Shown in pieces: positions 39,556-40,019 of a stretch of 40,147 bases of DNA (position 1 is the stretch's first letter; each line of letters begins with the position of its first letter). The translations under genes and the position numbers were made by a program. The stretch comes from Mycobacterium phage prophiGD43A-2: the sequence record MW584198.1. One strand, given 5' to 3'. The notes beneath the pieces are model-generated. The model saw nothing but the letters and a program-made list of their open reading frames with translations. It made no database searches and had not been told where the DNA came from.

Positions 39556-39810
39556 TCAACGATCTTCGAGAAATGACGCGAAGCGATCGGTCTTGCCGAT
39601 CCCGTAGAAGCGGCGCCGCTCGCGCGAAGGGGATAGCCCCTCGCCCCACAGCATGGCGCCATTCAGTGCGTAGACGACATTCGCGTAGGCCGGGGTGCCG
39701 GGCAACCGGAAGACGCACTCACGAGTCGGCCCGGCCACGTCCGAGGCGCCACCGTTGGATATCCAGCCGTTGACGAGAGCCACCCGGCCATGGCGCTGCG
39801 CGTCGCTCAC
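39556..39810 (-). CDS. Hypothetical 84-aa protein (GTG start), coupled to the upstream zinc-ribbon gene
   Basis: GTGA start/stop overlap with the 70-aa ORF. It lies between the viral repressor 3' end and int. Confidence 0.45.
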   Translation of the reverse strand: MSDAQRHGRVALVNGWISNGGASDVAGPTRECVFRLPGTPAYANVVYALNGAMLWGEGLSPSRERRRFYGIGKTDRFASFLEDR

Positions 39811-40019
39811 TGGTCGTCCTTGGTGATGTCCGAATACTGCGCCAGAAAGTCTGCGTCATTGAGCGGCTCTTGACCGGTCTCAATAGCGCGGATAAACGCC
39901 GCCGATCGTGCGACCTCTACGGGGCATGTCCGCCCGTGCTGAGCTAGTCCCGCGCGGCCCTTGCATACCCGCCCGCAAATGCAGGTGAGGTACTTCTCGC
40001 GCTTCACCGCGTACCCCAT
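39807..40019 (-). CDS. Small zinc-ribbon protein (C-x-C-x3-C...H-x3-C) with an acidic tail
   Basis: The translation is MGYAVKREKYLTCICGRVCKGRAGLAQHGRTCP... In the reconstructed viral attP its ATG overlaps the stop of the full-length repressor (TGATG). Confidence 0.55.
   Translation of the reverse strand: MGYAVKREKYLTCICGRVCKGRAGLAQHGRTCPVEVARSAAFIRAIETGQEPLNDADFLAQYSDITKDDQ

Follow-up and report, generated by a model that had tools for sequence, protein, structure and literature searches.

Among known lysis-lysogeny switches, integration-dependent immunity is considered the simplest; it has only three genes and lacks a recombination directionality factor (RDF). As described in PMC3694055, the BPs-type unit consists of int, rep, and cro, with int directly after rep, and its integrase (Int) reportedly needs no RDF for either integration or excision; rep and int of BPs are expressed from P_rep (PMC4557955, Fig. 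1 legend). What, then, is the role of two further small genes that separate repressor and integrase in such a phage? This question was examined in a cluster MabB (HB) Mycobacterium abscessus prophage, prophiGD43A-2, the ends of which are marked by a 40-bp att repeat; the whole stretch of 40,147 nucleotides analyzed is referred to here as the window. The MabB-type phages P3MA and phiGD34-2 are considered as starting material for M. abscessus phage therapy, and the engineering of obligately lytic derivatives of either phage touches the rep-int region.

Int-Y is at times separated from Rep by further genes (PMC8092301, Fig. 3D legend). Literature searches, and look-ups directed at the immunity and integration region in PMC8092301, PMC9934374, PMC10654092, PMC12160441, and PMC12382842, yielded no stated function for either of the two genes, designated Z and X here. 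The copies in relatives have already been deposited as “hypothetical protein,” and on present evidence Z and X are two such hypothetical genes with putative roles.

Gene order and coupling in the attP form

The att repeat copy at positions 1 to 40 is an exact direct repeat of 40108-40147, and the rep frame spans the repeat at both window ends, with peptide EPPRGIEPLTYSL encoded in ORFs 2-403 and 40019-40147. The common core of attP is thus inside the repressor ORF, rep being contiguous in phiGD34-2. The truncated, prophage part of the immunity repressor (2..403, minus strand) matches phrog_2328, “transcriptional repressor” (E = 2.7e-27), and, weakly, HTH_31 and HTH_3. The 3′ part of viral rep that integration cuts off (40019..40147, minus strand) is an open-ended ORF ending in PDRIAA, with an ssrA-like -AA tag; its counterpart in relatives is annotated as a misc_feature, “immunity repressor,” and MabB genomes keep the segment up to the rep stop. 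In window translations, the viral Rep tail ends in DRIAA and Int in SDAA, and these -AA ends of MabB Rep and Int have been described as degradation tags (PMC8092301). The gene at the cro position (360-635) is HTH_17-like by a weak Pfam match (E = 0.0011); the phiGD34-2 gene at this position has been deposited as “excise.”

Much of this arrangement is shared with the BPs type (BPs, Brujita, and Charlie; clusters G, I, N, and P), i.e., an attP core inside rep, -AA ends on viral Rep and Int, leftward reading of rep and int out of a region from which a cro-like gene diverges, and integration that truncates and activates Rep. Unlike in the BPs type, rep and int are separated here by two genes coupled in translation, followed by a spacer of 123 bp. 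The view in the first-pass annotation that Z and X are extras beyond the minimal BPs-type switch agrees with the three-gene unit of PMC3694055.

Both genes were recovered from the ORF list on the minus strand: Z (39807-40019; 70 amino acids, ATG start), which has a match to phrog_22760 and invariant Cys and His residues, and X (39556-39810; 84 amino acids, GTG start), which has a family of relatives and a pattern of purifying selection. Re-reading of the ORFs and junctions confirmed the annotated TGATG and GTGA overlaps, the rep stop/Z ATG junction being GCC TGA TGG and the Z stop/X GTG junction CAG TGA GCG; upstream of X, a Shine-Dalgarno-like AAGGA ends at a distance of 6 nt from the start codon. 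The order rep-Z-X-int, previously reconstructed from the two prophage ends, is the order found in the released phage phiGD34-2, where rep(39)-38-37-int(36) are contiguous with stop/start overlaps identical to those of the window. The position between the rep stop and the X start is termed the slot here. A contiguous rep-slot gene-X-int order is found in the released phages phiGD34-2, phiGD21-1, and P3MA (with Z itself in phiGD34-2), and stop/start overlaps are present at both slot junctions in the window and in these three phages. The int-X-Z-att end has 95 to 97% DNA identity and the same gene order in prophiGD11-2, prophiGD08-2, prophiGD42-2, and phiGD34-2.

The tyrosine integrase (38422..39432, minus strand; PF00589, E = 4.7e-21) has 336 amino acids, ending in SDAA, when read from a conserved GTG. 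From this GTG (39432) the ORF is open in all seven relatives, with conservation of the Shine-Dalgarno sequence and of an N-terminal motif. The X-int spacer (39433..39555, minus strand) therefore measures 123 bp, with a GC content of 0.54 and an AGGAAGG Shine-Dalgarno sequence upstream of the int GTG. The 240-bp gap given earlier holds only from the internal ATG at 39315, the start of a 297-amino-acid Int in automatic gene calls.

In the attP form, the anatomy places these elements in one leftward operon, running from P_rep through tagged rep, Z, X, and the 123-bp spacer to int, and integration at the tRNA-Thr attB splits this operon inside rep. A tRNA-Thr gene is reported to overlap attB-2 (PMC9934374). 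The att repeat, the rep frame, and phiGD34-2 all bear out the earlier proposal that the attP form alone has Z and X joined to rep and that integration severs them from P_rep. Since integration strips Z, X, and int of their promoter and of upstream translation, they are genes of the attP state. No promoter-like (sigma-70-like) or terminator-like site was found within 38300-40147. RNA structure in the spacer was likewise unsupported: the single-sequence fold had a z-score of +0.49, and a consensus fold of seven sequences showed compensatory change in 2 of 41 pairs with an unfavorable covariation term.

A repressor operator in the X-int spacer was considered and was not established. The sequence CGACATAT, with which the BPs operator begins (first 8 nt; PMC4557955), has two exact matches in the window, at 384-391, in the rep-cro region, and at 39520-39527, in the X-int spacer. 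At least two matches also occurred in 10 of 100 shuffles, the full BPs operator 12-mer with up to three mismatches gave 16 matches in the window against 16.8 expected by chance, and phiGD34-2 lacks the rep-cro copy.

Could Z and X be chance open frames of a GC-rich genome, from which no protein is made? The region does contain many overlapping ORFs of similar length on both strands. Several lines of evidence nevertheless make this extremely unlikely. First, X has dN/dS values of 0.09 to 0.35 in all 28 pairs among eight sequences, every one of which has exactly 84 codons even at a dS of >1; X is under purifying selection. Second, homologues of Z can be recognized at the protein level in phages of unrelated clusters, and the Cys and His residues are invariant among them. 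Third, both genes have a coding-type excess of GC at third positions (0.73 in Z and 0.79 in X, compared to 0.51 at the matching position of the intergenic gap). Loss of the frames in related phages had been named as a finding that would count against the genes; X retained 84 codons in 8/8 sequences and Z its Cys and His residues in 7/7. Z and X are real genes that follow the tagged viral repressor in translational coupling.

Protein Z and the slot that it occupies

Z is probably a lone C2HC zinc finger of the classical beta-beta-alpha type, to which an acidic helical tail is attached. Its ligand pattern, C13-x-C15-x12-H28-x3-C32 (C-x-C-x12-H-x3-C), agrees with the spacing of the classical finger, C-x(1-4)-C-x12-H-x(3-5)-H/C, and the predicted model (pLDDT of 79) has strands at residues 10 to 12 and 18 to 20 and a helix at 21 to 31. 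Residues C13, C15, C19, H28, and C32 are invariant in 7/7 sequences, including relatives only 44 to 49% identical in that alignment. The ligand spacing and the predicted beta-beta-alpha unit are thus those of classical C2H2/C2HC fingers, from which Z differs in being a single finger with a one-residue knuckle (CxC), in having Cys instead of His as its last ligand, and in carrying a fifth invariant Cys (C19) and an acidic helical tail of 38 residues. The earlier description of Z as a zinc ribbon, a fold with two beta-hairpin knuckles that each supply a CxxC-type ligand pair, had to be abandoned: Z has one Cys knuckle (C13-x-C15), and H28 and C32 lie in and just after the predicted helix.

Searches place Z in a phage family of unknown function, phrog_22760 (E = 3.3e-22, residues 1 to 63 on positions 1 to 63 of the 71-position profile). 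The best BFVD matches are the homologues in 32HC and BigNuz (32HC gp5 and BigNuz gp72, both 51% identical), which have unrelated small genes as neighbors and are distant from int and rep. Structural comparison was less informative. Foldseek superimposed Z on human C2H2 fingers with an rmsd of 0.9 to 1.8 Å over 23 to 27 columns at weak E values of 2.8 to 9, and it gave no PDB match at E values up to 0.001. A wide VIA search returned no chain with a Z score of ≥5, the best being 3.2, with finger chains level with unrelated chains; among Pfam families there was no zf-C2H2 match at E values up to 1, and two unrelated matches were below threshold.

In MabB genomes, similarity spans the core and the rep tail up to the rep stop and restarts at the X start codon. 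Between these points lies Z or a protein of 68, 92, or 100 amino acids, the last three without evident similarity, and in prophiGD36-2 the slot is empty. The MabB sister genomes prophiGD21-1, prophiGD16-1, prophi89-1, and prophiT50-1/P3MA differ from the window in having another gene in the place of Z. Z is one of at least four unrelated genes that have been cleanly exchanged in the slot.

This exchange bears on two proposals for the function of Z. The first-pass annotation had listed Z as a candidate RDF, which is difficult to reconcile with a slot that holds unrelated genes in sister phages and with 32HC and BigNuz homologues nowhere near int or rep; for these reasons, Z is not a dedicated recombination factor. 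Z could alternatively be a nucleic-acid-binding regulator of the lysis-lysogeny decision, acting on P_R, P_rep, or RNA, with the other slot genes as functional analogues. It is the first gene translated after rep, its finger (residues 1 to 33, charge of +5.5) is basic and is followed by an acidic tail (residues 34 to 70, charge of −5.3), and it superimposes locally on C2H2 fingers. However, the slot proteins have no evident mutual similarity, the slot of prophiGD36-2 is empty, the 32HC and BigNuz homologues are remote from the immunity region, and the statistical support for the fold matches is weak (Foldseek E of >1 and VIA Z score of ≤3.2). A regulatory role for Z is therefore considered very unlikely.

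Conservation and distribution of X

X is a small basic protein (pI of 9.6), for which an AlphaFold2 model from a 25-sequence alignment was unusable (mean pLDDT of 47.7). It matched no Pfam family at E values up to 1 or up to 10; when 20 members of the X family were searched singly, the only Pfam match was that of one member to DUF5131 (E = 0.2). The family had no match in NCBIfam, the ESM Atlas gave nothing usable, and the best profile match in the PDB was a viral capsid protein (E = 0.076). Weak matches to phrog_7799, of unknown function, were obtained for 9/20 members (best E of 0.025). A HMMER search with the X profile against 1.84 billion representatives gave 14 matches at E values up to 0.001, 10 of which were short family members; the other 4 (644 to 2,552 amino acids, with Ig, fn3, or PKD-type repeats) were taken as spurious, and no fused form of X was present among the matches.

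Among 50,697 phage records, X was detected in 22, all of M. abscessus phages (22 with each of two queries). The X family is unnamed and, as judged from these searches, appears confined to prophages of Mycobacteroides (the M. abscessus-chelonae group). Its clusters are MabB, MabH, MabN, and MabO, i.e., four of the six listed as integration-dependent in PMC8092301; X was not detected in the other two, MabC and MabK. It is found beside a same-strand tyrosine integrase in 10/10 annotated phage contexts (6 upstream and 4 downstream) and no more than about 450 nt from the integrase in 4/4 genome loci, in 3 of them directly adjacent; in prophi91-3, prophiGD53-3, and L015, the X start overlaps the int stop. 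In these contexts, X always lies downstream of attP in a rep-int cassette, just before or just after int. Part of this adjacency is due to shared descent across related mosaic prophages.

The association with int does not extend to its sequence. X of prophiGD21-1 is 95% identical to that of the window, and in prophiGD36-2 X is 75% identical while Int is only 29% identical. The lack of covariation makes a specific contact of X with Int less likely and favors a host or DNA target. In addition, X is absent from the M. smegmatis phages Phayonce and BigNuz, the integrases of which are 60 to 63% identical to that of the window, and this integrase type therefore works without X.

These data allow evaluation of the possibility that X is an RDF (excisionase) added to a BPs-type cassette, tilting a bidirectional integrase toward excision. 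Like excisionases of the lambda Xis, L5 Xis, and HTH_17 types, X is small, basic, and encoded beside a tyrosine integrase; PMC3694055 proposes an intermediate with a new rep-int promoter and an acquired RDF, and MabB has a 123-bp spacer ahead of int. No promoter-like site was found in that spacer, however, and X differs from these excisionases in matching neither HTH_17, Xis, nor any other Pfam family (the HTH_17-like protein of the window is the product of the cro-position gene) and in its predicted coexpression with int from the repressor promoter. Membership in the same coupled operon means that X would be made when integration is needed, which argues against an RDF, as do the RDF-independent excision reported for BPs-type Int and the homologous M. 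smegmatis phage integrases that lack X. An added RDF is therefore quite unlikely, and the narrower roles of classical excisionase and excision-only directionality factor are unlikely as well. Of the two functions suggested by the first-pass annotation, a lysogeny-decision factor fits X better than an RDF, given that the cassettes in which X occurs are all of the rep-int kind and have their attP within rep.

Possible roles of X in the attP state and in the lysogen

We tentatively propose, at a confidence somewhat short of probable, that Z and X belong to an operon of the attP state in which Z is exchanged cargo and X is an establishment accessory of the integration-dependent switch. The most likely role of X, as we infer it, is that of a switch accessory made only in the attP state. 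X would act in the establishment window by tuning Int-dependent commitment, for example through the activity or stability of Int or Rep or through a host factor. The lambda CIII-type establishment factor, a small early protein made with lysogeny functions, could shift a protease-sensitive decision. X may be compared to such a factor, with the difference that it is also present in cassettes (MabH, MabN, and MabO) in which Rep and Int lack -AA tags.

A more specific version is unlikely, namely, that X, again made only in the attP state, is a small factor of a new kind that governs commitment or directionality of the arm-less tyrosine integrases of integration-dependent immunity switches. X would then set the ease of reaching Int-dependent integration, and hence lysogeny, in Mycobacteroides hosts, and would represent the stage of accessory-factor acquisition postulated by Broussard and Hatfull as an intermediate on the way from the BPs switch of three genes to switches like that of lambda. 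If the accessory role of X is correct, a conserved fourth component, made only before integration and present in four of six clusters, would change the view of the switch in the M. abscessus-chelonae group, and X would open to experiment the question of how a simple switch acquires new components.

The attP-state proposal predicts little expression of these genes after integration. In a lysogen of prophiGD21-1, a MabB relative, the repressor alone is expressed (PMC8092301, Fig. 4B legend), and by analogy Z, X, and int are probably silent in the lysogen. Four coded RNA library runs were compared to positions 36000 to 40147, and only run X1 had contigs of ≥99% identity to the window. This run, which holds the prophage, includes a low-depth contig (39605-39784) inside gene X that could reflect some transcription of X in the lysogen or DNA carryover. 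No contig covered Z or most of the spacer, and the missing cover is uninformative about expression; contig depth was 25 in the toxin region and 2 to 4 in int and X, depths that cannot rank expression.

The contig inside X would fit a further alternative, in which X, Z, or both are prophage-expressed cargo (“morons”), e.g., defense or host fitness genes at the attachment junction. Z and X are less than 600 bp away from the end of the prophage, where prophage-expressed genes are commonly located (PMC8092301), the Z slot is as hypervariable as cargo sites are, and X shares with the neighboring WXG/polymorphic-toxin cassettes a restriction to the M. abscessus-chelonae group. Conversely, the exclusive expression of the repressor in the prophiGD21-1 lysogen, the failure of PADLOC to match X, Z, or two other slot proteins, and the lack of a promoter-like site all speak against cargo of this type, and the stop/start overlaps tie the translation of Z and X to rep, from which they are severed in the prophage. 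Prophage-expressed cargo is thus improbable, and an accessory of the attP state remains the preferred reading for X. In the RNA libraries, tRNA contigs extend into the att core copy at positions 1 to 40.

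Layout of the rep-int interval

The window is a complete prophage of 40,147 bp with an exact 40-bp direct repeat at its two ends (1-40 and 40108-40147). Its right end is 95 to 97% identical to six Mycobacterium abscessus prophage or phage records (prophiGD11-2, prophiGD08-2, prophiGD42-2, prophi62-1, prophiGD34-2, and the released phage phiGD34-2). In Table 1 of PMC8092301, these are listed under cluster MabB with attB-2 as the integration site. This site is described as overlapping a tRNA-Thr gene (PMC9934374), and MabB is named cluster HB in PMC12160441. ARAGORN found no tRNA, since the window contains no more than the 3' core; tRNA contigs from RNA libraries enter the copy of the att core.

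Four frames in the ORF listing follow one another on the minus strand: the open-ended tail of the repressor gene rep (40019-40147, C terminus ...PDRIAA), Z (39807-40019, ATG start, 70 aa), X (39556-39810, GTG start, 84 aa), and the tyrosine integrase gene int (38422-39432, GTG start, 336 aa). The peptide EPPRGIEPLTYSL is common to the rep tail and the 3'-open repressor ORF at 2-403, and the att core therefore lies inside rep. Both overlaps described in the first-pass annotation are present, namely, TGATG between the rep stop and the Z ATG (GCC-TGA-TGG) and GTGA between the Z stop and the X GTG (CAG-TGA-GCG); in addition, an AAGGA lies upstream of X, with its end 6 nt from the start codon. The gene order reconstructed for attP was also correct, as phiGD34-2 carries all four genes contiguously (in locus coordinates: rep, 2510-3001; gene 38, 3001-3213; gene 37, 3210-3464; int from 3588). 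The 240-bp gap placed before int is the distance from ATG 39315, the start of the 297-aa Int forms in the protein collection, and shortens to a spacer of 123 bp with the start at GTG 39432. The int ORF is open from the position of this GTG, with conserved Shine-Dalgarno and N-terminal motifs, in 7/7 relatives, including prophiGD36-2 (Int 29% identical to that of the window) and the Mycobacterium sp. D16Q14 locus (with a 14-codon deletion). Databases differ in this start, curated phage records giving the GTG (336 aa) and automatic calls the internal ATG (297 aa), and the N-terminal extension is absent from the Int of M. smegmatis phage relatives (296 to 300 aa).

GenBank already has both small genes and their order, as hypothetical proteins, and PMC8092301 mentions that Int-Y may be parted from Rep by further genes. 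Both frames are maintained among relatives. For X, dN/dS was 0.09 to 0.35 in 28/28 pairs, with dS up to above 1, among eight sequences (the window, five phage records with X annotated, one without, and one genome locus), every copy having exactly 84 codons. For Z, dN/dS among close relatives was 0.48 to 0.55, with one pair lacking synonymous change, a divergence too low to inform; however, residues C13, C15, C19, H28, and C32 are invariant in 7/7 aligned sequences, and phrog_22760 gives a full-length match to Z (E 3.3e-22). Homologues of Z in phages 32HC, Nazo, and BigNuz are ∼51% identical by tblastn and 44 to 49% identical in the alignment. Third-codon-position GC is 0.73 in Z, 0.79 in X, and 0.74 in int, against 0.51 for the matching position in the spacer.

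The gene between rep and X

In an alignment of the interval between the att core and the X start, MabB genomes are similar through the core and rep tail as far as the rep stop codon, cannot be aligned in the stretch beyond it, and are similar once more at the X start codon. This slot is hypervariable and holds one gene, reaching exactly from stop to start codon, with no evident similarity among its four occupants: Z in the window (39807-40019) and six phage records, including phiGD34-2 (3001-3213); a 68-aa protein in phiGD21-1 (2298-2504 of the locus); a 92-aa protein in P3MA (2226-2504); and a 100-aa protein at the D16Q14 locus (3702-4004). In prophiGD36-2 it is empty. The occupant keeps stop/start overlaps at both junctions in the window, phiGD34-2, phiGD21-1, and P3MA, the four genomes in which rep is annotated or was read. 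Remote homologues of Z lie far from int and rep, in 32HC between terminase and portal, among small genes read leftward, and in BigNuz in the right arm. Slot swapping and these homologues indicate that Z is mosaic cargo, whose translational coupling is inherited from its position, and not a dedicated integration or excision factor, contrary to its earlier candidacy as a recombination directionality factor (RDF).

The earlier zinc-ribbon label does not apply to Z, as that fold requires two knuckles. In the AlphaFold2 model of Z (mean pLDDT 79.3, 6-sequence alignment), residues 10-12 and 18-20 form strands and residues 21-31 a helix, after which come more helices; this predicted arrangement and the spacing C13-x-C15-x12-H28-x3-C32 fit a classical beta-beta-alpha finger whose last ligand is Cys. 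Foldseek superposed the modeled finger on human C2H2 fingers with an rmsd of 0.9 to 1.8 Å over 23 to 27 columns, but with E values of 2.8 to 9, and structural matches reached significance only in BFVD, to the homologues from 32HC (E 4e-6) and BigNuz (E 8e-6). A wide VIA search with the model gave nothing above a Z-score of 3.2, and Pfam gave no finger match; fold membership therefore rests on motif and model. Z combines a basic finger half (+5.5) with an acidic tail (−5.3). Targeted literature searches found neither the clean swap slot nor the finger assignment in print.

X in integration-dependent cassettes

The X family is small. X had no match in Pfam, PADLOC, NCBIfam, PDB, or ESM Atlas, and its predicted structure is unusable (pLDDT 47.7). 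A word-indexed search returned 26 clusters at 67 to 93% identity, all named ones from Mycobacteroides or unnamed Mycobacterium, and a full HMMER scan covering 1.84 billion representatives contributed just a few more relatives, of 64 to 114 aa; four repeat-protein matches in that scan were regarded as spurious. X occurs in 22/50,697 phage-collection records, all M. abscessus phages, the same number being returned by the window protein and by a 43%-identical member queried at E up to 1. A one-genome-per-species scan gave four loci. In prophiT36-2a (OQ417963.1), an intact 84-codon homologue at 341-595 (81% identical in local alignment, 79% by tblastn) has no annotated CDS and lies partly beneath an "immunity repressor" misc_feature.

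In 10/10 annotated contexts examined, X adjoins a same-strand tyrosine integrase downstream of the attP-bearing repressor. It lies upstream of int in phiGD34-2, prophiGD08-2, phiGD21-1, P3MA, prophiGD36-2, and prophiT36-2a and downstream in phiT45-1, prophi62-3, prophi91-3, and prophiGD53-3; its start overlaps the int stop in prophi91-3, prophiGD53-3, and genome locus L015. Among the four genome loci, X is upstream of the integrase in one, directly downstream in two, and ∼420 nt downstream in one, where the integrase follows an HTH repressor. At this last locus, in Mycobacteroides franklinii (2092-3723), the X match at 3484-3684 is within a 132-aa ORF, and a 121-aa ORF lies between it and the integrase.

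The X-bearing prophages examined belong to clusters MabB, MabH, MabN, and MabO (PMC8092301, Table 1), and section 10 of that paper lists attP inside rep for clusters MabB, C, H, K, N, and O; X is thus present in 4/6 integration-dependent clusters on these lists. No X record whose cluster was looked up comes from a cluster listed without integration-dependent immunity, that of phiT45-1 being unconfirmed. The association is suggestive and, the clusters being related mosaics, no statistical proof. Restriction of X to such cassettes, on either side of int, was not found in print in targeted literature searches.

To judge from sequence identities, X does not track integrase lineage. Compared with the window, X is 75% and Int 29% identical in prophiGD36-2, and X is 39 to 61% and Int 29 to 31% identical in the group with int before X; the M. 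smegmatis phages Phayonce and BigNuz (Int 60 to 63% identical) have no X. X seems to travel as a single module with the spacer and the 5' end of int.

At 39370-39470 (minus strand), nucleotide-level conservation covers the first ∼17 int codons and the Shine-Dalgarno region before them, with TAGTTTCGG invariant around the int start in 7/7 sequences and AGTTAC.G.AAGG upstream. This conservation extends to prophiGD36-2 despite an Int only 29% identical overall and may reflect a control site in the DNA or RNA instead of a constraint on the peptide. The 8-nt motif CGACATAT, with which the published BPs operator begins, occurs just twice in the window, in the rep-cro region and the X-int spacer (384-391 and 39520-39527, respectively; minus strand); phiGD34-2 lacks the rep-cro copy, and statistical support is weak.

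A possible role in establishment

In BPs, P_rep drives rep and int expression (PMC4557955, Fig. 1 legend), and the switch normally has three genes, Int integrating and excising without an RDF (PMC3694055, section 4). In contrast, rep-Z-X-int has two extra genes, and the placement of Z and X outside the minimal switch agrees with that description. Gene order, overlaps, and the cut inside rep are established features of the locus. Expression of Z, X, and int from P_rep would be confined to the attP form of the genome, and integration would turn them off by parting them from the promoter and from upstream translation.

The constant feature of X is its place downstream of attP in the rep operon, on either side of int, and this marks X as a candidate accessory in the establishment decision. 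That X serves the integration-dependent switch in this way is our favored but tentative reading. Its conservation across very different integrases and restriction to one host group favor a target in the host or in DNA over tight X-Int contact. The proposal that X is itself the RDF seems unlikely: X resembles no excisionase, and an excision-only RDF made with Int at integration would be counterproductive. The system is a known switch, varied by an uncharacterized, conserved extra component.

X might instead be cargo expressed from the prophage, which we consider unlikely. The legend to Fig. 4B of PMC8092301 names the repressor as the sole gene expressed in GD21, a MabB lysogen. One RNA run (X1) gave contigs ≥99% identical to the window: one of 2,111 nt covers the toxin cassette (36132-38242), one of 180 nt falls within X (39605-39784), and short ones of low depth match parts of int. 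Such contigs show neither strand nor level and do not tell transcription from DNA carryover, so that weak X expression in a lysogen is neither confirmed nor excluded. Where the single 2,111-nt contig lies, downstream of int at 36132-38242, related records have a WXG-motif protein and a polymorphic-toxin cassette. At the other end, the cro-position gene (360-635) has a weak HTH_17 match (E 0.0011); the phiGD34-2 gene in this position is deposited as "excise" and those of sister genomes as "helix-turn-helix DNA binding," labels that are annotation only and do not imply homology to the gene of the window.
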